Origin: a virus
Lineage: Duplodnaviria; Heunggongvirae; Uroviricota; Caudoviricetes
Virus record (IMG/VR): IMGVR_UViG_3300028898_000252
Coordinates: 221,946-285,945 of that record
Length of the DNA: 64,000 nucleotides
Reading direction: 5' to 3' (one strand)
Part shown: positions 2,363 to 33,534 of the stretch, one piece after another
Layout: each line of letters begins with the position of its first letter
Numbering within the stretch: the first letter of the stretch is position 1
Position numbers and translations under genes: made by a program
The notes under the pieces: generated by a model
Databases searched by the model: none
The model's input: only the letters and a program-made list of their open reading frames with translations
Told to the model about the DNA's origin: nothing

Positions 2363-3505
2363 TCAATTGCCAGAAAAAAGATAATCATAAATTTCTGACA
2401 AAGAAGCAATTTTATCTAGTTTGGTTGATAGTCCATATTTGTCTTTTGTAATTGATCCGCAATAAACCTCGTACACTGGGTACGCTTCGAAGTTTTCTGT
2501 TGGACTTATGTCCCAAACTTTTACTGTTAAGTCTGAAAACTTTTCTCCAATTACAGAGAGTTCGGCGTAAATTTTTCCTGTTTTTGTTGTTTTTAATATT
2601 GCTTTTCTTAAAATAAACCAAACTTGTTCTGTGATCTTTTTCTTTTCTCCTTCTTCAAGAAAATCGATTTCTCTAATCTCATCAACGCTTATAAGATTCA
2701 TCTCTTTTATTGCTTCAAAATATTTTGGATCAAGAATTAAACTTAAGTCTGCGCTACCTGCAAGTTCGAGCCAATATTTAGTTTTTTCTGCTCTTGACCA
2801 ATCTTCTGTTTTTAATTCTTGTTCTTTTTTTATTAGTTCATCTAAAATTGGTTGAATGTTATTATTTTTCTTCTTTGCTGAAGTTTTCTTTAATAAATCA
2901 AAATTTTCGACAATAACATTAAACGCTTGTTTGTAATTTGATAATTCACCAGTTGGCGAAACAAGATTTAAACTATCGAGGGCCTCTAAGCAAATAAGAT
3001 TTGTTAATCCTTTACGATTAAATTTAGAATGTTTCCAAGAACCATCTTCTTTTATTAATAAGTCTTTTATATCTTTATAAGGTTTATTTCTGTTAATTTC
3101 TTCGAGCGCTGCTTCTCCAATTCCATCAATTGTTGTCAATCCTGGAATTATTGTTTTTTCTTTAAATGGATGCATTTCATATCCCGCACTTGAGAAGTTA
3201 ATATCTGGTTTTGAGAATTTATAGCCAAGTTTTTGTGCCTCTCTCATTGCAACAGCTTTGGGATCTTCTTGACCAACAACTTTACCCTTTTCAAGAGCGG
3301 CATAATCTAAACAAGCTGTTATCCATTCATCTGGATGATATGTTAAAAGATAGCTGCATTGAAAAGTAGCTATTGAATAAGAAATTGCGTGGCTATTAGA
3401 AACAGAAATATCATTAGCATAAAAAGTATGGTCTTCATGATCCACTTCCAAATCATAAGTTTCTTCAATACCATAAAACTCAACAGAATCGATCTCGTCT
3501 AGCAT
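2363..3505 (-). CDS. dnaE: DNA polymerase III alpha, fragment 4 (IntC3 + C-terminal extein)
   Basis: Begins with an intein C-fragment (TYDLEV...FYANDISVSN), then SHAISY (DnaE FNKSH.AY), PDINFS, GLTTIDGIG (HhH) and an OB-fold-like KTTKTGKIYA region. Confidence 0.93.
   Translation of the reverse strand: MLDEIDSVEFYGIEETYDLEVDHEDHTFYANDISVSNSHAISYSIATFQCSYLLTYHPDEWITACLDYAALEKGKVVGQEDPKAVAMREAQKLGYKFSKPDINFSSAGYEMHPFKEKTIIPGLTTIDGIGEAALEEINRNKPYKDIKDLLIKEDGSWKHSKFNRKGLTNLICLEALDSLNLVSPTGELSNYKQAFNVIVENFDLLKKTSAKKKNNNIQPILDELIKKEQELKTEDWSRAEKTKYWLELAGSADLSLILDPKYFEAIKEMNLISVDEIREIDFLEEGEKKKITEQVWFILRKAILKTTKTGKIYAELSVIGEKFSDLTVKVWDISPTENFEAYPVYEVYCGSITKDKYGLSTKLDKIASLSEIYDYLFSGN
3395..3505 (-). 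mobile_element. split intein C-fragment IntC3 (37 aa, acidic)
   Basis: Block F YDLEV, block G ending SN, +1 Ser. Confidence 0.9.
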
Positions 3506-3642
3506 TATTTTTTTTCCTTTACAAAAGCTTCTATTTTTTTGAGAACCGAATCAAAATCAGAATTAATCTCGCTTTCCCAAATTCGTAATATTTTCCATCT
3601 TATAACCTTAAATTCTTGATTACAGATCATACATTTTTGCAT
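3505..3642 (-). pseudogene. 45-aa internally deleted remnant of a Vsr-like homing endonuclease (not in the ORF track)
   Basis: Manual translation MQKCMICNQEFKVIRWKILRIWESEINSDFDSVLKKIEAFVKEKK*; the WKILRIWESEI tail matches YKTLYIWESEL and YKVLTLWESEI in the two intact endonucleases; TAATG overlap with dnaE-4. Confidence 0.7.
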
Positions 3643-3662
3643 TTGACTAAAACCAGATACAA

Positions 3663-3929
3663 TTATTTTACTATAATTTGAAGCTTTTGCTCTATTATTT
3701 CTTTAACAGTTTTCATGCCATTAGGTGTTTGAATTTTATGATCTAACGTACAGACTAATTCTTTACCAGACTTCGTTTTAATTTTAACCAAATTTTTCAC
3801 ACCATTTTCAAACTTATTTTTTACTTTTACAAATCCATTGACACTATTGACTAAATCTTGGTTTGGTATAACCTCTTTAATTTTCTTAAATCCGTTTTGA
3901 GTTTCTACAAGTGAATCTCCATGCAAACA
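3663..3929 (-). mobile_element. split intein N-fragment IntN3 (88 aa, basic)
   Basis: Block A CLHGDSLV, block B CTLDHKI, then a stop codon. Confidence 0.9.
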
Positions 3930-4889
3930 TTGGTTAAACGAATACGCAACCAATTTTTCCATTTTATCAAAAAACTTTGATGCCTTTTGTTCTTCAAGAC
4001 CTGCAAAGGTTTTTGTTTTTTCTACAAACTCAGCTTTTAACTTCTCACGTTCTTTTGCCGCTTTTTCCTTGTTGTTGATTTCTTTCTTTGTAAATGCTTT
4101 ACGAACGGAATCTGTTTCGTCGAGAGGAACTCCACATAAATGATGATAAATTAACTGTAACTGTTCTTGAAAAATTAAGAGTCCGCTTGTTGGTTCTAAA
4201 ACTTCTTTTAAGAATGGATGTTCATATTTAATCAAATCTGGGTTTGCTCTATTCGCTAAAAAGTCTCTATCTACTTTTAATCCTAGTGGGCCTGGGCGGT
4301 GTATTGAAGTCGCAATCGCAATATCTTTGACCGATCTAGGCTTCATCCTTTTCATAAAATCTTGTGTGTTTGGTTTTACGAACTGGAAAATCGAAATAAA
4401 ATTTCCATTCCAAAACACGTTTTCATAAACTTTAAGATCATCCATTGGATTATTGTCTGGTGACAAATGATCATTAAACCATTTTTGAACTTCTTCAAAT
4501 GGTATTTCGGATTCTTGTCTTCCTGTTTGTTTTTTTAATATTTTTCTTACCGTGTTTTCAAAAATACGGAGTGTTCCAAGTGCCAAAAAGTCAAACTTAA
4601 GAAATCCAAAATGTTCTAGCATTCTGAAGTTTACACCTTCTGTCCAAGGTGTTTGGAGCGATCTTTTCTCACCCTTGCCGCCAATAATCAGAGGCATATT
4701 CTGGTTTTCGATCGGCGAGTCAGTGAGGACAACGCCGCCAGCGTGGCGACCGCAATTTGAAATTAATCCAGCTTCGGTCACTATATTAGGCTGATCGTCA
4801 ATAAAAGCACCTGTTGGAATATTGTGGTGAATATCAAAGACAGGTTTCTTACCAATTTTTTGAATTGAGATTATTTTATTCTGTTTCAT
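3663..4889 (-). CDS. dnaE: DNA polymerase III alpha, fragment 3 (IntC2 + extein + IntN3)
   Basis: ...GLISN|CGRHAGGVV, catalytic KFDFL, IFQF, RPGP, IFQEQ, AYSFNQ|CLHGDS... Confidence 0.94.
   Translation of the reverse strand: MKQNKIISIQKIGKKPVFDIHHNIPTGAFIDDQPNIVTEAGLISNCGRHAGGVVLTDSPIENQNMPLIIGGKGEKRSLQTPWTEGVNFRMLEHFGFLKFDFLALGTLRIFENTVRKILKKQTGRQESEIPFEEVQKWFNDHLSPDNNPMDDLKVYENVFWNGNFISIFQFVKPNTQDFMKRMKPRSVKDIAIATSIHRPGPLGLKVDRDFLANRANPDLIKYEHPFLKEVLEPTSGLLIFQEQLQLIYHHLCGVPLDETDSVRKAFTKKEINNKEKAAKEREKLKAEFVEKTKTFAGLEEQKASKFFDKMEKLVAYSFNQCLHGDSLVETQNGFKKIKEVIPNQDLVNSVNGFVKVKNKFENGVKNLVKIKTKSGKELVCTLDHKIQTPNGMKTVKEIIEQKLQIIVK
4755..4889 (-). mobile_element. split intein C-fragment IntC2 (45 aa)
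   Basis: KIISIQKIGKKPVFDI...GLISN, +1 Cys. Confidence 0.88.
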
Positions 4890-5331
4890 CGCCGAATTCT
4901 CGCTCCAACTTGAGACCTATTATTTTTTGATTTTCTATTTCCAAAAGATAAGAATAGAGTTCAATTCCATCATAATTTATACCTAAAGAAAATTGTGGTT
5001 TAAATTTATTTGTTAGTTGGATATTATTAATCCAAATCCAAGTATCGTGTGGGGTAAGAACTTTTTCATCGCTAATTGTATAAATAGTAACAAACATCTC
5101 TTGAATCTCTTTTTCGGATAAGAACTTACATTTGCGTAAAAATTCAATAGACATATCTTGACAACTAATAGCAAATACATCTAATTCTTCAAGCAATATC
5201 AATTTTTCCGAATGTATAATTTTTCTAGTTTTTAACTGATCAACCAAACTATAAAACAATTCAAAAACAGCTTGAGACTTTTCTAAAGTTACTTTTTCAT
5301 AGTCTTCAGAAAAAAATTGCTTTATATCCAT
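4876..5331 (-). CDS. hypothetical protein lying between IntN2 and IntC2
   Basis: 151-aa ORF overlapping both flanking dnaE fragments; no recognisable motif. Confidence 0.6.
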   Translation of the reverse strand: MDIKQFFSEDYEKVTLEKSQAVFELFYSLVDQLKTRKIIHSEKLILLEELDVFAISCQDMSIEFLRKCKFLSEKEIQEMFVTIYTISDEKVLTPHDTWIWINNIQLTNKFKPQFSLGINYDGIELYSYLLEIENQKIIGLKLEREFGDETE

Positions 5332-5600
5332 CCGATTAGAGAATCCTCATTTGTTAAATCTTTTACCTGTTTCCAACCTTTATCGGTTTGAACTAAATGG
5401 TCTTCAGTTAGTTCCAAAACCTTTCCATCTAAAGTTTCAATTTTGTAAACTTCTTTTTCTCCATTTTCGACTTTAAAAAAGTCTGAACTATATTGAATTT
5501 CTCCAACGTTGTCAATAAATGCTATCTTGTCTTGCTCTGTAATTTCAGAGTATTTTTTCCAACCGCTGTTAGTCAACAGTAATGTGTCCTCCGTAAAACA
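5322..5600 (-). mobile_element. split intein N-fragment IntN2 (92 aa, acidic)
   Basis: CFTEDTLLLT..GWK, block B LTEDHLV, GWKQVKDL, then stop. Confidence 0.9.
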
Positions 5601-6725
5601 TGATTTTATTTGTTTGAATAATACTTTTATGCTCGCTTCAAGTTGTGGATAATCTTCCAATAGTTTGTTAAAAGTTGGAGAGTTTTTCTCGGCACTTTCA
5701 TAAGAAAGAAACCAAACACCTCGATCGAAACCATCTTGTTTCTTATCTTCGTCAAGTGTTTCTTTTTCAATTTTTTGAGTAATTGGATTGATTTCTTCAA
5801 ATGGAATTTGGTATAACCTAGCCAAATCTTTAATTAAGGATTTAAGTTGAAGTTGGTTATAGTTTGAAACAGGTAATACGCATTCTTCTCCAAAATGCTC
5901 GATAAGAATTTTAATTGCCTCTTCTCTGTCTGCACAATCGCTATCAATGTCAGGTAAGGAATTGTGGGATAAAACATACACGCCATCTTTTTTATCTGAA
6001 ACCCAAAATGTATGGTCGGCTTCCAATTTAATATCAATTAAAGTTAATGGGACTTTACCTTTTTCGATAGAAAAAATTTCCCAAGTTTTATTATCAGATC
6101 CATTCCCATAAAATCTTGGCTGAGTTTTTGTAAAACTATTATCTACTACTGATTTTATAAATTCAACAGATACATCTTTATATTTTACATCTAAAGGAAT
6201 TTTTTGTATATGTGGACAATTAAATTGTTGAGCTGTAATAAATTTATGATTTGAACTAGCTATCAATTTTCCAACGCTATAAAATGGTCTATGAAAACCT
6301 TTCAAACCAAGACTGGTATGATTTAGCCAATAACCATACGTAATTTCATACCAGTCTGTACGATCTTTTGTTAGATCAATTGCCACGGTAGGAAAATATT
6401 TTCCTGTATGAGTTTTAATTCGGTCTCCGATTTTAATATTTTTTAATTGTTTAGGACCCGTATAGGTCAAGACCCAAGAATCTTCTCCGAGACATGCTTT
6501 CTTTTTACTTAAAAACCTTTCAAACAAAAGTCCATGTTTAATTGGATCAACCTGGGTAATTCCTAAAAGGTAACAAACTAAAGATCCCGCACCAGAATTA
6601 TGCACAGGAAAACCCTCGACGTTATACGAACTTTTATTCTCAACAGAAAGGTCATAAACCTTTCCAGTATATTTTCTATATGTTTTTGATTTTAGTTTCA
6701 TTATGTTTACCAGAGGCCATTCCAT
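5322..6725 (-). CDS. dnaE: DNA polymerase III alpha, fragment 2 (IntC1 + extein + cis mini-intein + extein + IntN2)
   Basis: VHN|SGAGSLVCYLLGIT..DP....LLFERFL; catalytic PDIDSD; QIKS|CFTEDT; the true start may be the ATG at 6701. Confidence 0.94.
   Translation of the reverse strand: MEWPLVNIMKLKSKTYRKYTGKVYDLSVENKSSYNVEGFPVHNSGAGSLVCYLLGITQVDPIKHGLLFERFLSKKKACLGEDSWVLTYTGPKQLKNIKIGDRIKTHTGKYFPTVAIDLTKDRTDWYEITYGYWLNHTSLGLKGFHRPFYSVGKLIASSNHKFITAQQFNCPHIQKIPLDVKYKDVSVEFIKSVVDNSFTKTQPRFYGNGSDNKTWEIFSIEKGKVPLTLIDIKLEADHTFWVSDKKDGVYVLSHNSLPDIDSDCADREEAIKILIEHFGEECVLPVSNYNQLQLKSLIKDLARLYQIPFEEINPITQKIEKETLDEDKKQDGFDRGVWFLSYESAEKNSPTFNKLLEDYPQLEASIKVLFKQIKSCFTEDTLLLTNSGWKKYSEITEQDKIAFIDNVGEIQYSSDFFKVENGEKEVYKIETLDGKVLELTEDHLVQTDKGWKQVKDLTNEDSLIGWI
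5961..6494 (-). mobile_element. contiguous mini-intein (178 aa, no endonuclease) in dnaE fragment 2
   Basis: CLGEDSWV, ASSNHKF, LIDIKLEADHTF...LSHN|S, immediately before SLPDIDSD. Confidence 0.88.
6597..6725 (-). mobile_element. split intein C-fragment IntC1 (35-43 aa, basic)
   Basis: YTGKVYDLSVENKSSYNVEGFPVHN, +1 Ser. Confidence 0.9.
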
Positions 6726-9691: not shown

Positions 9692-10714
9692 TTATGTTTT
9701 TTTTGATATGAATTTTATTTTTTTATGTTTAAAATTTTCACATTTTTCATTTTGAGCACTGTACGAGATTTTATTTAATTTAAGTTTTTCTTTTATTAGA
9801 TTTTCAATTTCAATTTCAGATTTATTTTTCAATTCGCTTTCCCAAATATATAATGTTTTATAACCATATTTTTCCGCATTTTGTTTTTTTATTAAATCTT
9901 TATCCCAAATTTCTTTAACTTTAATTAAACCTAATGGATAGTTAATAAAATCATTTTCCTTATAGTAAAGAGGATTAGCATGCCAATAATCTCCATTAAT
10001 TTCTAATACATAATTTACATTAAAAATCTTAATATGAAAATCATAACTTTTTCGGTTTATCCAAAATTGTTCGCTATATAGTATATTTAATTTCTGTAAA
10101 GAATTTTTTATTTTACGTTCAAGCGAAGAATTATAACAAGAAACAATTTTTCTCGAACGTTTTTGAATTATTTTAGTTTTTTGTTCTTCTGTTAAAGAAT
10201 TCCAAGATAAAATACTTTCTGACCATAAATTTTGAAGCCTTTTCTTTTTTTCTTCTTCTGTAGAACTTTTCCATCCGAAATAATTTGCTTTTCCGTATAA
10301 GTTAGGAATAGCTTTTATTCCATATTTCTTTTCTTTAGAAGCTTGTGCTTTAATTCCATAATCTTTTGTTTTCCAAATATTATCTACTCCGTAATTTTTT
10401 AAAGAAGTTTTTCTCTTTTTTTCTTTAACAGAATCAAGACTACTTACATTCGACACACCATATTTTTCTAATAGATTTTCCTTATTTTCTTTTTTAAACG
10501 TATTTGTTTTTCTACTTTCTGAAATTGATCTAATCTTTATATTATTCTGTTTTAATATCAAAACACTTTCTTTAAAACCCAAATTAAACTGTTTCTTTAA
10601 TTTGGGTAAACTGTATTCCAAATCTCTATAACAATTAATGACTTCTTTGACGTTAATATTTTTATTTTTTATGATTTTTTGAACTTTTTCTTCATCTGTT
10701 AATTTTTTGGACAT
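9692..10714 (-). mobile_element. free-standing Vsr/DUF559-like putative homing endonuclease
   Basis: KYGV.N repeats; YDF...EINGDYWHANP...KD..K.....GYKTLYIWESE; sits inside the RNA ligase gene. Confidence 0.82.
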
Positions 10715-22285: not shown

Positions 22286-22576
22286 TTAAAAACATACTTT
22301 TTCGAATTCATCATCATCTTTTAAGTCAGATGCCGCGACCCAACCACGATTTTTCGTAAGAAATTTATGATCTTTTGTGCAAGAAATTATCGTACCATCA
22401 TCAAATTCGAGTTCTACTATCTCTTCGTCTTGAAGATCGTGATCCCAACATTTTAAAACTTTTTGAATTGAGCCATCGTGGGTATAAACCCATTCTTCTT
22501 TTGAAGAAGAAAACTCTTCAATATTCAATTTTCTTTTTGAAGAAGGAATATGTATTTTTGTTCCTGGTAAGAAACA
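22286..22576 (-). mobile_element. split intein N-fragment IntN1 (96 aa, acidic)
   Basis: CFLPGTKI, block B CTKDHKFLT, RGWVAASDL, then stop. Confidence 0.92.
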
Positions 22577-24136
22577 ACCTCTGCCAGCTCCTAATAACAT
22601 TTTTTTACCAATCAAATTAAGACTTTGGGCACAAGTCAAAAAATACTTTTCAAGTTTTAAATGTTTGATAACGTCAAGTTCTTCAAGAGCGCGGTCAACA
22701 TATTTTGTATCTTCAATTTTCTTTTTTGATTCTAGACCAGACATAACCAAATCGACGAGCTCGTTAAAACTTATTTCATCTTCATTCAAACCATCGGATT
22801 TAAAATCTTTAATTTTATTTTCTGATATTAACTTATTCAGACTTGGAAGTTTTGGAGTTTTATCGAATTCTATTTTCTTGTCAATTGCTTCAAAAGCAAT
22901 TTCATGCGTTCGTTCAATTGCGTCGCAAACTATTTCATGATATTCTTCGGTATAAATTTCAGGATAATCTTTAACACAATAGTTTTTATAAGCGTTCCAC
23001 ATTTGAGTGGCATTCTTTGGATATAACTCATGTTCCAACTCTTCAATTTTTTGTGGAATTGTATTTGGATCAATTTCTTTAAGTTTATCGACAGTCATTC
23101 TTGCGAGAGTTTTATAAATAATTCTTTCTTTCCAGTGTTCGGGATTTGGATAGTGGCAATCTGCGGTCGCAATAACTTTTATTCCAGTTCTTTTTGATAA
23201 TTCAATTAAATGATAATTCAGCAAATGTTGATATGGAACTTTGTTAAACTGTATTTCAAGAAAAAAATTATCTTTATTGCCTCCTAAAACGTATATAAAT
23301 TGCTCGGCAAGTAGTTTTAGTTCAGATTGAATCTGATCGAATTTGTAAGTTTTTAGTTTATCGACATCACTCTTGTAATCTTCTTCATTTAGGTTAAGAT
23401 CTAAAAAATGTTTTATGAGTATTTTATTTGGTTCGCCACCTAAACAAGCGCTGCTTGCTATTATATTACCATTAGCATTTTGCTTTATTAAGTCGAAATC
23501 CATACGTGGAAAAAAATAAAATCCTTCTTTATAAGAAAGAGAAGTTAGTTTAAACAAACTATGTAAACCTGCTGTGTTTTTTGCAAGCAATACTAAATGA
23601 CTTCTTGAACGAAGAGGATCTCTAACTTTGTTGGATTTAGTTTCTTCTTCATTTTCAACAACAGTTGTTTCAACATTTCCTTCAGCGTCTTTCAAAAGCG
23701 CAACTTCTTTATTTAAAAGTTCGTAGTTTTCAACTTCTGCTATAAATTCTGCTTTTCGCTTTTCTTCAATTTCATCAAAAATAATAAACTCATCTGTTGA
23801 TTTTTTTGGTTTTGCTTTATTTGTTTTTTTATTTTGCTTTTCTATTTCTTTTCTTTTTGAAGTTTCTTCTTTTAAAGAAGACCACTCCGATATGGATGGA
23901 ATAAAATAAGACTCAATTCCATAAAGAATTTTGAATTCTTTACCTTCTTTTTTAAGACCCTCGTAGTATTTGTAAGAGTGAGAAAAAGTGTTCATGTTTC
24001 CATGATCTGTAATTGCGTGAGCTCCAAGTTCATTTTTTTGGGCAAAATCAAAATGATCCTGGGGAAGTCCGATGGCATCGCCAATACTTCCGTTTGAATG
24101 TGCATGTAGATTCACATACTTTTTAGGCTCTCTCAT
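22286..24136 (-). CDS. dnaE: DNA polymerase III alpha, fragment 1 (PHP domain + IntN1)
   Basis: NLHAHS..S.GDA, ITDHG, GIE, HLVLLAKN, SACLGGE, TADCHY, EL.VI....YFL, GAGRG|CFLPGT. Confidence 0.95.
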   Translation of the reverse strand: MREPKKYVNLHAHSNGSIGDAIGLPQDHFDFAQKNELGAHAITDHGNMNTFSHSYKYYEGLKKEGKEFKILYGIESYFIPSISEWSSLKEETSKRKEIEKQNKKTNKAKPKKSTDEFIIFDEIEEKRKAEFIAEVENYELLNKEVALLKDAEGNVETTVVENEEETKSNKVRDPLRSRSHLVLLAKNTAGLHSLFKLTSLSYKEGFYFFPRMDFDLIKQNANGNIIASSACLGGEPNKILIKHFLDLNLNEEDYKSDVDKLKTYKFDQIQSELKLLAEQFIYVLGGNKDNFFLEIQFNKVPYQHLLNYHLIELSKRTGIKVIATADCHYPNPEHWKERIIYKTLARMTVDKLKEIDPNTIPQKIEELEHELYPKNATQMWNAYKNYCVKDYPEIYTEEYHEIVCDAIERTHEIAFEAIDKKIEFDKTPKLPSLNKLISENKIKDFKSDGLNEDEISFNELVDLVMSGLESKKKIEDTKYVDRALEELDVIKHLKLEKYFLTCAQSLNLIGKKMLLGAGRGCFLPGTKIHIPSSKRKLNIEEFSSSKEEWVYTHDGSIQKVLKCWDHDLQDEEIVELEFDDGTIISCTKDHKFLTKNRGWVAASDLKDDDEFEKVCF

Positions 24137-30764: not shown

Positions 30765-32651
30765 TTAATCCAGGCTGTGCTCATCAGTTGGAATGCCAGT
30801 TGTTACAGAAATTTCATCTTTCTCATTATCTCTTAGAATAAAGGCACCGTCACACAACATTAAAATATACTCTTTATATTTTGGATCGTTAAAAACTGTA
30901 ACGAAATCTACTTTATAAAAACTTTTATCTCCTTTTACTTCTCCCGTTAAACAATCAATTAATTCAATTTTTTTCCAAGCTCCTGCACCAGAAATACTAG
31001 CACAGATACCATTTATTGCACATTTTTCTCTATTTTCTTTATATTTTGGGGTTTCACAAAAAGCTCTGAGGTCATCAAAAAGAATTTCGTAATCATTTAT
31101 ACCTTTATCATAAAGAATTTGCAGCTCTGCTTGTCTGTAAGGTCTTGCGACTTTATTCTTAACTGTTGCTACTCTAACTTGAATCCCTTTTATAATTTCT
31201 TGTTTTTCGACAAGCTCTTTGATTTTTTGTGGGGTATAAACTCGTAATCTAACTGACGCAGCAAATGGAATTGCCATACCACCAGGAGTAGTAGTATTAT
31301 GATTTATTTGACCTTCAGCTAAGTAACAATTTGTATTTTCTACTGAAAGATCTAGAACATCAATTTTGCCGTCAACTTTAACAGCGTCAGGATGATCTTT
31401 TAATTCTATCCATCCATTGTTAAACCAGACTTTATGATTTGCGGTTCCTTTTAAAGAACCTAGACTATAAAAAGAATCAACAGAAGGTTTTACGACTAGA
31501 TCTGTTAATTTACTCCATACAGTTTTATTTTGAACAATATCGTAACTTTCAATTTCAATATCATCATTCAATGACAACATACCGACTTCATCAAATGATG
31601 AAATACCATACCTTTCAAATAAATCTTTTAAAGTAACTTCTTCTTCTTTGTAAACGTTATTTTCTATATCCATTTTTATAAATCTTTCTATTTTTTCTTG
31701 TATTTCTCTTTTTTTTAGTTTTAGTATTTCAGATTCCCAAAGTGTCAGAACTTTATAGCCATCAGTTACAAGTGTGTCAATTCTTGTTTTATCTTTTTCC
31801 CAAACTTCTTCTTTATCTACCCTTTTTGTATTATCAGGATTTGCGTGCCAATAATCTCCATAACATTCAATTATTAAATTATTTCCTAAAGAAAAATCAG
31901 GATAAAACCATTTATTATCTAACAATAATGGAGATTCATATTCCCAATTAATTTTTAAATCATTTAAAATATTTCCAACAATAAATTCAATTTTAGTCAT
32001 TTTACACGAATTTAGTTCGTATTTTTTTGGGAAATTAAGATCTCTTTGAAGTTTATTCGCATAAAATTTTGACCAATATCTAATTTTTTTTATTCTTTCT
32101 GGTTTATTTGCTGCAATTTTTAATTGTTCTATACCTCCATTAGTTAACCATTTTTTATAAGATTCTACTCTTCTTTTTTTCACTTCAGGATTTTGAGTAG
32201 CCTTATAAACTTTTAATTTATATTCTTCATTTTGATATAATTTTTTCTTAATTTTAGACTGAAGTTCATGGTTATAAGACTTTTTTAGAGTGCTTCTGTA
32301 TTCTTCTGAATTTATAACTTTTTTATGATTAAAAATCATTTTCTCTTCAATTTTTTTAAAATACTCAACACAAAAAGAAATCTCTTCAGTTGAAATTAAT
32401 CTATTGTTTAAAAACCATTTATAGGCATTTTTTTTATTAAAAAAATATTTATAAAACTTGTAAAGTTTTTCAGCTATTTGTAAATTTTCGAAATATAAAC
32501 AAAAATATCTTATAGAAGATGTCGAAATCGGCATTTCCCCATCTTTATAATTTTGCTTACAAATTTTAAACTCTTCTTTTAGTTTAATTTCAAAAATTGG
32601 TTTATTTTTCTTAATTGTAAATTTGAAATTAAAATAATCTTTTTCATCCAT
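30765..32651 (-). CDS. recA: Vsr-like endonuclease + split intein C-fragment + RecA C-terminal extein
   Basis: YPDF...ECYGDYWHANP...GYKVLTLWESE; intein blocks GTANHKV and VLDLSVENTNCY...INHN; then TTTPGG.AIPF.ASVRL and KNKVARPYR. Confidence 0.9.
   Translation of the reverse strand: MDEKDYFNFKFTIKKNKPIFEIKLKEEFKICKQNYKDGEMPISTSSIRYFCLYFENLQIAEKLYKFYKYFFNKKNAYKWFLNNRLISTEEISFCVEYFKKIEEKMIFNHKKVINSEEYRSTLKKSYNHELQSKIKKKLYQNEEYKLKVYKATQNPEVKKRRVESYKKWLTNGGIEQLKIAANKPERIKKIRYWSKFYANKLQRDLNFPKKYELNSCKMTKIEFIVGNILNDLKINWEYESPLLLDNKWFYPDFSLGNNLIIECYGDYWHANPDNTKRVDKEEVWEKDKTRIDTLVTDGYKVLTLWESEILKLKKREIQEKIERFIKMDIENNVYKEEEVTLKDLFERYGISSFDEVGMLSLNDDIEIESYDIVQNKTVWSKLTDLVVKPSVDSFYSLGSLKGTANHKVWFNNGWIELKDHPDAVKVDGKIDVLDLSVENTNCYLAEGQINHNTTTPGGMAIPFAASVRLRVYTPQKIKELVEKQEIIKGIQVRVATVKNKVARPYRQAELQILYDKGINDYEILFDDLRAFCETPKYKENREKCAINGICASISGAGAWKKIELIDCLTGEVKGDKSFYKVDFVTVFNDPKYKEYILMLCDGAFILRDNEKDEISVTTGIPTDEHSLD
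31296..31673 (-). mobile_element. long split intein C-fragment (about 126 aa) of RecA
   Basis: Starts near MDIENN, contains blocks B, F and G, ends HN, +1 Thr; lacks block A. Confidence 0.85.
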
Positions 32652-32697
32652 TTGACATTTTTGTTCTTATTTTAATTTTTGTGTCTGGTGAAACACA
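32644..32697 (-). mobile_element. atypically short split intein N-fragment (17 aa)
   Basis: CVSPDTKIKIRTKMSNG*, block A only. Confidence 0.85.
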
Positions 32698-33429
32698 AGC
32701 ATCTCCATGTAAGATACCAATTTTTTGTCTTGTCTGATTAACAAGTAAGAGTGTGACTCTTTTATCTTTCAAGATCTGATTAACTTTCATAATACCTTTG
32801 CTAAGAGCTCTAGCTTTGATTCCAATTTGTTGTTGTTCGTAGGTTGCCTCTAACTCGGTTCTAGAAACTGAAGCCGCTACTGAGTCCCACACGATGATTA
32901 CTGGCAGATTGTTATCTTGATTTTTAACAGAGGTGATTATTTGTTCTATTAATTGAAATGTATCTTCGATACATTGTTCTTGGACGAAAATTAATTCGTC
33001 GGTATTGACTCCAAGCATCGCAAGATTCTCCACAGATGTTGCATTTTCAGAGTCAATATAAACTGCTATTGCCCCATTTTTTTGAGCCTGCGCGCATATT
33101 GTTTGCGCAAGAGTTGATTTCCCAGAAGAAGGTTCTCCAAAAACTTCAATTATTCTTCCTTCTGGAATTCCTCCATTTCTTTTATTTGAAATAATATAGT
33201 CTAATTTTATTGCTGATGTTGAGAACCAATTTTTTACATTAGTTGGTGCATCGTCATCTGTTTTAAGATTATAAGCAATCTTTTCTCCGCGGGTTTTGTT
33301 TATTTCTTTAGTGATTCCAGAAATAATTGCCATTCTTTTGGAAGAGGCTTGCTCTTGAGGCTCTAGTAAATTTGTGGTTTTGGGAGTAAGCGATACTTCT
33401 TGTTTGTTGCCTTTTTTAATGTTTGCCAT
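32644..33429 (-). CDS. recA: RecA/UvsX recombinase N-terminal part + 17-aa intein N-fragment
   Basis: GGIPEGRIIEVFGEPSSGKST, YIDSE, WDSVAA, NQTRQKIGILHGDA|CVSPDTKIKIR. Confidence 0.93.
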   Translation of the reverse strand: MANIKKGNKQEVSLTPKTTNLLEPQEQASSKRMAIISGITKEINKTRGEKIAYNLKTDDDAPTNVKNWFSTSAIKLDYIISNKRNGGIPEGRIIEVFGEPSSGKSTLAQTICAQAQKNGAIAVYIDSENATSVENLAMLGVNTDELIFVQEQCIEDTFQLIEQIITSVKNQDNNLPVIIVWDSVAASVSRTELEATYEQQQIGIKARALSKGIMKVNQILKDKRVTLLLVNQTRQKIGILHGDACVSPDTKIKIRTKMSNG

Positions 33430-33475
33430 TTTTCTATCTTCTATTATTGTTCCTTTGGATTATTTTACAATAGAC

Positions 33476-33509
33476 AAAAATAAAGCCAAGTATTTTTAGT
33501 ACTTGGCTT
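33476..33509 (-). terminator. intrinsic terminator
   Basis: 10-bp perfect stem AAGCCAAGTA/TACTTGGCTT followed by TATTTTT on the minus strand. Confidence 0.7.
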
Positions 33510-33534
33510 CAAAAAACCTTAAATAGGTTTTTGG

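Follow-up and report, generated by a model that had tools for sequence, protein, structure and literature searches.

Fractured genes, in which a split intein is accompanied by an intervening Vsr-like homing endonuclease, have been described previously (Dassa et al. 2009, PMC2677866). Naturally split inteins with an S1 break constitute a second described kind; they include VidaL, with an N-terminal intein half (IntN) of 16 amino acids (aa) (PDB 6VGV), and the PolB16 OarG intein, with an IntN of 15 aa, and few split inteins with a short N part have been characterized (PMC13014065). A further related element is the homing endonuclease I-Bth0305I, of the EDxHD/Vsr-like kind, which is encoded in a group I intron within recA of Bacillus phage 0305phi8-36 (PMC3239194; PDB 3R3P). 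In this study we examined a split recA gene of a virus of the Caudoviricetes (IMG/VR record IMGVR_UViG_3300028898_000252), located in a stretch of 64,000 nucleotides (nt; positions 221,946 to 285,945 of that record), hereafter the window, to which all coordinates refer. This recA combines two of these known kinds, the fractured gene and the S1-type split intein.

The gene is encoded on the minus strand by two overlapping open reading frames (ORFs). ORF A (33429..32644; 261 aa) codes for the N-terminal part of RecA (RecA-N) followed by a 17-aa IntN, and ORF B (32651..30765; 628 aa) codes for a Vsr-like endonuclease, the C-terminal intein half (IntC) and the C-terminal part of RecA (RecA-C), with no stop codon between these parts. 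The N-extein (32698..33429, ORF A aa 1-244) ends in QKIGILHGDA and is directly followed by IntN (CVSPDTKIKIRTKMSNG, 32647..32697), which aligns with residues 1-17 of contiguous relatives and is closed by the TGA stop of ORF A at 32646-32644. This stop and the start of the endonuclease share an 8-nt overlap, ATGGATGA (32644..32651). Within ORF B, the endonuclease occupies aa 1-326 (31674..32651) and IntC aa 327-452 (126 aa, 31296..31673; block B GTANH, C-terminal end AEGQINHN), the latter aligned with both contiguous and split relatives, while the C-extein of 176 aa, beginning TTTPGGMAIPF, lies with its stop codon at 30765..31295. The cut falls in the L2 loop of RecA, the Pfam RecA family being matched over 6-199 in ORF A (E 1.5e-38) and over 200-262 in ORF B (aa 453-519, E 8.9e-13). 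The N-extein is 86-87% identical to the N part of the relatives P0003 and P0012, and the C-extein is 77% identical to these two and 84% identical to P0024. Two parts of the host gene thus each bear one intein half, with a homing endonuclease gene (HEG) between them, which is the arrangement of a fractured gene; the 17-aa IntN, the Vsr-like endonuclease and its stop-free run into IntC had been reported in a preliminary description of this DNA, the coordinates and sequences of which proved exact.

The account that we favour, with a probability of roughly 0.65, is that recA is here a fractured gene whose split intein is of S1 type and has an HEG in the gap, with dual products of ORF B and trans-splicing to RecA. 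It draws on the gene layout and its recurrence in independent data, on the homology of all parts, on the fold of a contiguous relative, and on the states of the element in related phages. A class 1 mini-intein seated in the RecA L2 loop would have been invaded by a Vsr-like/EDxHD HEG in the loop just past strand beta2, the S1 site, leaving RecA-N and the 17-aa IntN as one gene. The HEG starts 8 nt before the IntN stop and its 3' end normally overlaps the IntC start in another frame; in the window lineage this 3' end is in the IntC frame, hence the lack of a stop. ORF B would then yield a 628-aa endonuclease-IntC-RecA-C fusion from Met1 and a 302-aa IntC-RecA-C protein from Met327, the form predicted to be made by HEG-less relatives. 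Docking of IntN on IntC would complete the Hint fold, and trans-splicing would yield a RecA of 420 aa, the only one of the phage.

The endonuclease part of ORF B aligns end to end with free-standing Vsr-like endonucleases of 330-360 aa. A phmmer search with it retrieved 1694 relatives, the full-length matches being mostly such free-standing proteins, and two of the homologs are annotated as Vsr endonuclease by the Joint Genome Institute (JGI). The nuclease core lies at about aa 211-311, with PDF at 251 and E262, D266 and H269 within IIECYGDYWHANPD (at 260), and all the EDxHD core motifs (PDF ... IEcxGDxWHANP ... D..R ... WE) are found in ORF B aa 251-305 and are invariant in the alignment. Matches of this part to Pfam were sub-threshold only, and PDB 3R3P (I-Bth0305I) was matched weakly (E 0.014). 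From aa 211 on, ORF B and P0001 share 99-100% identity, against only 77% in aa 1-210, which looks like a recombinational swap of the N-terminal module of the endonuclease, presumably its DNA-binding part, with the ORF kept open (window 32022-32651). For P0002, identity amounts to 96% (aa 1-210) and 91% (aa 211-326) in the endonuclease and to 86% in RecA-C; an endonuclease better conserved than the flanking RecA-C fits a mobile gene spreading among diverged hosts, and is an indirect indication of a putative homing activity. A paralogous Vsr-like endonuclease is encoded by a free ORF elsewhere in the window (9692-10714; Pfam DUF7487), with a tblastn match at E 1e-6 to aa 215-326 of ORF B.

The stop-free passage from endonuclease to IntC, flagged as abnormal in the preliminary description, is indeed so among related loci. 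In all 34 non-redundant relatives with this endonuclease, the frame state of which was determined by tblastn frame analysis, the endonuclease ORF runs 4-47 nt past the IntC ATG in a different frame. The window endonuclease is in frame with IntC and reaches it without a stop, and in this it differs from the free-standing endonuclease with its own stop that characterizes fractured genes. Where the locus L083 reads GTAAATGG, the window reads ATAAAAATGG, and the in-frame state results from these two extra A of a homopolymer run. The same state is common to P0001 and P0002 (92% identical), and in L002/L003, which retain an endonuclease remnant with most of its body deleted, KIKEFI and the following MINKKEEY are still in frame. 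At window 32501, one A of an A5 run is missing from a wastewater contig (run X5, depth 17); this 1-nt deletion would break the endonuclease frame near codon 50, sparing IntC-RecA-C, and possibly represents a decaying endonuclease allele in the population. The in-frame endonuclease-IntC junction is a rare variant, of which no description was found in the literature searched. There is also an intein named 'VidaL UvsX-2', a name not found in that literature, and this RecA/UvsX split intein may therefore have been described earlier.

Met327 (ATG 31673-31671, region 31671..31693, with upstream aaatagaaagatttataaaa) is very likely a working start of IntC-RecA-C, given the start used at the HEG-less locus L082 by P0024, the remnant in L002, and the best start context in ORF B. 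P0024, 84% identical, is predicted to start with MDIKNTLYKEEE (MDIKN) exactly at the Met327 equivalent. At L082 the HEG is absent and the frame is closed 11 codons upstream of the IntC start, about 45 nt of the HEG 3' end being kept as a leader; this leader, AGAAAGAATTATAAAATGGATATA, matches AGAAAGATTTATAAAAATGGATATA of the window and precedes the same ATGGATATA start, the comparison resting on the two ends of the L082 spacer, as its AT-rich middle does not align reliably with the endonuclease gene at the DNA level. With a matrix of start contexts derived from 292 long ORFs of the phage genome, Met327 scores 3.45, at the 60th percentile of the 292 true starts and the 98th of internal ATGs, and is the top-scoring ATG in ORF B, with 0.68 for Met1. 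The 628-aa fusion is probably also made, since nothing stops ribosomes that start at Met1, and the 8-nt overlap could couple the translation of ORF B to that of RecA-N. An AlphaFold2 model of ORF B (predicted local distance difference test score, pLDDT, 81; predicted template modelling score, pTM, 0.29) presents separate domains, linked through a helix (314-331) followed by a loop about 9 residues long, and as a model gives no reason against docking of IntN on the fusion. The fusion and an internal start at 31673 had initially been posed as alternatives; the comparative data favour a real internal start, and both products are probably made. Dual expression, with the Met327 form as the working precursor, appears from these comparisons the most likely outcome.

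Some points weigh against this account. The start-context score separates true from false starts weakly (means 2.3 versus -2.4, standard deviation about 3), and the HEG-less state of L082 informs on the ATG at that locus and not on that of the window. The fusion may be the sole source of IntC in some phages, such as those coding for P0129 and P0161, in which the junction holds no Met. Contigs from RNA cover both junctions without resolving transcript ends, and could reflect DNA carry-over. Finally, splicing, the use of both starts and the activity of the endonuclease are predicted from sequence.

An alternative scenario would make the fusion itself the selected, working form: most or all IntC would be present as endonuclease-IntC-RecA-C, whose synthesis would keep step with that of RecA-N by coupling to ORF A via ATGGATGA. 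The two halves would be produced one to one, and the product released by splicing would be a complex of endonuclease-IntC and IntN, which amounts to a split maxi-intein bearing its nuclease at the S1 site. The 628 codons without a stop, in the window as in P0001 and P0002, are in keeping with such a role, as are the fit of the 8-nt overlap with translational coupling and the modelled helix and loop joining the domains, which imply no clash. In-frame endonuclease-IntC-RecA-C fusions have moreover arisen independently in distant RecA lineages with a TTSGG C-extein (P0129, P0135 and P0161), so that the state recurs in at least four lineages, two of them without an internal Met. However, the fusion is rare and not favoured, because the endonuclease is in frame in none of the 34 endonuclease-bearing loci compared; close relatives with a lost or decayed HEG start at the internal ATG, Met327 outscores Met1 as a start, and the deletion at 32501 disrupts the endonuclease while leaving IntC-RecA-C whole. 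We therefore regard a fusion-based system as rather unlikely. If true, it would represent a living intermediate between the free-standing endonuclease of a fractured gene and the built-in endonuclease domain of an intein.

Returning to trans-splicing of an S1-type split intein, the residues of a class 1 intein are all present: C245 in ORF A, and T403 and H406 in GTANH, followed by INHN and T453, in ORF B. These splicing residues (Cys1, T..H, HN, Thr+1) are conserved across the aligned contiguous and split relatives. Pfam missed the intein of ORF B at normal thresholds, its PF14890 C-terminal block matching IntC weakly (12.8 bits), and the Hint fold was assessed on the contiguous relative L084 (133 aa, 61% identical to IntC; AlphaFold2 pLDDT 92.7). 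The best Foldseek matches of this model are inteins, with Pho RadA 4E2U first (template modelling score 0.79), Mtu RecA also among them, and VidaL 6VGV at rank 27 with 18% identity. The model comprises strands at 7-12 and 15-20, with a turn at 13-14 between them, and a helix at 21-27; the window IntN spans the first strand, strand 7-12 and the next turn, in which it stops, and IntC starts ahead of strand 15-20. By this model the element is a class 1 mini-intein of Hint fold in the RecA L2 loop, with a split site of S1 type, directly behind strand beta2 and ahead of helix alpha1. IntN and IntC are on separate polypeptides, with a stop after the 17-aa IntN and a junction found in contigs of four studies. 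The intein-less relatives P0012 and P0018 read G(G/S)DPT(V/T)TPGG where the window has INHN then TTTPGG, so splicing would restore a normal L2 loop, as first proposed, in a RecA of 420 aa.

It is improbable that the split recA is instead a decaying gene that no longer splices, in a phage that manages without RecA. The splicing activity is deduced from the sequence, and Thr is a less common +1 nucleophile, which leaves some room for such decay. Against it, all the splicing residues are kept in the contiguous and split relatives, Thr+1 included, both exteins are stop-free and 77-87% identical to intact relatives, and the split form is retained in dozens of lineages, in some of them after loss of the HEG. 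The split gene is also the only RecA of the genome, no second one having been found in the 390,884-bp virus record, which has direct terminal repeats and 33% G+C.

The two-ORF layout is real and no frameshift artefact, since the 8-nt overlap is spanned, with no indel, by contigs from four independent studies. The check was made on assembled contigs of four runs, and not on raw reads; these contigs, from wastewater, activated sludge and one RNA library, span 32644-32651 with substitutions and no indel, and the ORF-fusing indel for which a check at 32640-32655 had first been proposed was absent from all four studies. The stop at 32646-32644 is present in every data set compared, and there is no uninterrupted ORF from N-extein to C-extein of the kind that defines a maxi-intein. 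The same AATGGATGA junction is present in L002. A scan of the region for RNA families in Rfam, group I introns included, gave no match. That ORF A and ORF B, which overlap one frame step apart, are truly one contiguous endonuclease-bearing intein, interrupted by an assembly or sequencing error or read through a programmed frameshift, is thus extremely improbable, the junction being the same and indel-free in contigs of four studies, the relatives stopping IntN at the same loop though their junction sequences vary, and AAT GGA TGA offering no slippery site. Programmed frameshifting, sequencing error and a group I intron were all rejected on the basis of the indel-free contigs, the junction sequence and the lack of an RNA-family match.

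The element occurs in a wide variety of states among related phages. Intein-less RecA is found in P0012 and P0018, and a contiguous mini-intein at the same site in P0003-P0011, P0013, P0015, L084, L085, L087 and L105; about 75 clusters consist of stand-alone IntC-RecA-C genes of approximately 300 aa. Among the 63 non-redundant loci that contain both the RecA-N end and IntC, five are contiguous and 58 are split at or near the S1 loop, 27 of them with a Vsr-like endonuclease gene, 11 with another insert longer than 500 nt and 20 without an endonuclease gene. IntN measures 14-20 aa in most of the loci and 25-39 aa in a second group, the IntN of 14-20 aa in relatives having the same motif as that of the window. 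The initial view that split inteins with a short N part are rare in nature therefore has to be abandoned for this family, which includes dozens of split loci with an IntN of 14-20 aa: on sequence criteria such inteins are common here, though rare among characterized inteins. An IntN of 14 aa (e.g. CVTPDTRIRIRKYV or CVTPDTKIKIRRRK, each followed by a stop) was observed in L012:3083-3131, L096:3863-3911, L098:3867-3918, L099:3145-3193, L016:264-312 and L169; the shortest characterized IntN has 15 aa (PolB16, PMC13014065), and these RecA forms are shorter. An IntN of 25-39 aa (e.g. CVDLDTEIEVEFDENSMFNKEYFNKNFK followed by a stop) was observed in L017, L180, L183, L191, L202, L210, L216, L230, L237 and L241; this class has a short gap to IntC without an endonuclease gene, and is probably split after the first helix, in an S2-like position.

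Other arrangements were also noted in the family. In L202:403-2295, L211, L212-L218 and L227-L241, a Vsr-like endonuclease follows a complete intein end and TTxGG and precedes the remaining RecA-C; here either the extein itself is fractured or, a few codons away from the intein site, there is a group I intron such as that in recA of Bacillus phage 0305phi8-36. Two inteins separated by only 6-8 residues (one at KIG then C, the other at the L2-loop GDPT then C) are found in the RecA genes of L005:2320-2912, L006:2290-2883, P0014 and P0017; in L005 and L006 the first intein is contiguous and the second is split by an endonuclease gene.

Regarding the genomic surroundings, recA-N is preceded on the minus strand (33443..33511) by promoter-like sites and by a hairpin that resembles a terminator of the upstream gene, both being weak candidates from a consensus scan only, and the same type of scan found no terminator-like site between ORF A and ORF B. 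DnaE is also encoded in several pieces with intein halves (window 2363-6725 and 22286-24136), namely the PHP part with an IntN (22286-24136), the NTPase part with a Hint domain (5322-6725), the finger domain (3663-4889) and HHH (2363-3505), and the whole genome holds 11 Intein_splicing matches. A tblastn search against GenBank phages returned RecA-C and distant nuclease matches only, the layout itself being absent from deposited phages. A scan of viral contigs with ORF B as the single query gave no match, and those with P0129 and P0135 returned nothing of use.

Among closely related phages, the family displays all the stages in which an endonuclease enters an intein gene, splits it and is lost again, and these staged relatives support gene breaking as modelled by Dassa et al. 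Of this model, the in-frame state would be the one step not yet documented, with the endonuclease half-way to becoming an intein domain. Split inteins with a short N part are wanted for protein semisynthesis, as their N part is accessible to peptide synthesis, and the RecA intein family offers many natural variants with an IntN of 14-20 aa, the 14-aa forms carrying Thr at +1, with contiguous, split and endonuclease-less relatives all at hand for comparison. Should the fusion splice, IntC would tolerate an N-terminal cargo of 326 aa, a property useful for design.

As in the fractured genes of Dassa et al. (PMC2677866), a split intein interrupts a phage gene for DNA metabolism, its two halves flank a Vsr-like endonuclease gene, and the 3' end of the endonuclease enters IntC, by overlaps of 6-69 bp in that report and of 4-47 nt in the relatives examined here. 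The inteins of that report have a canonical split and an endonuclease in a separate ORF, whereas the window intein has an S1 break, 17 aa from its N end, and an endonuclease in frame with IntC without a stop. RecA was not found there as a host of split inteins, recA being mentioned for group I introns only. Similarly, I-Bth0305I belongs by motif to the same nuclease family, with the weak match given above, and both endonucleases reside in a phage recA; in contrast, I-Bth0305I is encoded by an intron and the window endonuclease lies in an intein gene without an Rfam intron match, and similarity outside the core is very low. If the fusion were used, the locus would resemble contiguous maxi-inteins in that the nuclease would be produced in amounts equal to those of the host protein and set free together with the intein. 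It differs from them in the break in the chain that separates IntN from the nuclease, and in the nuclease itself, which occupies the S1 loop instead of the canonical insertion point and is Vsr-like rather than of the LAGLIDADG or HNH type. With VidaL and PolB16 the window intein shares a natural split just after strand beta2, at S1 (PMC13014065). The VidaL IntN CLPKEAVVQIRLTKKG and IntC start MIEEKKVTVQEL (PMC10264447 supplement), compared by eye, follow a pattern like that of CVSPDTKIKIRTKMSNG and MDIENNVYKEEEVTLKDL, although the VidaL exteins read ESG then SGK and not a RecA L2 loop (PMC10264447). Both inteins would therefore work alike, while the rank and identity of VidaL in the Foldseek search with the L084 model indicate a distant relationship.

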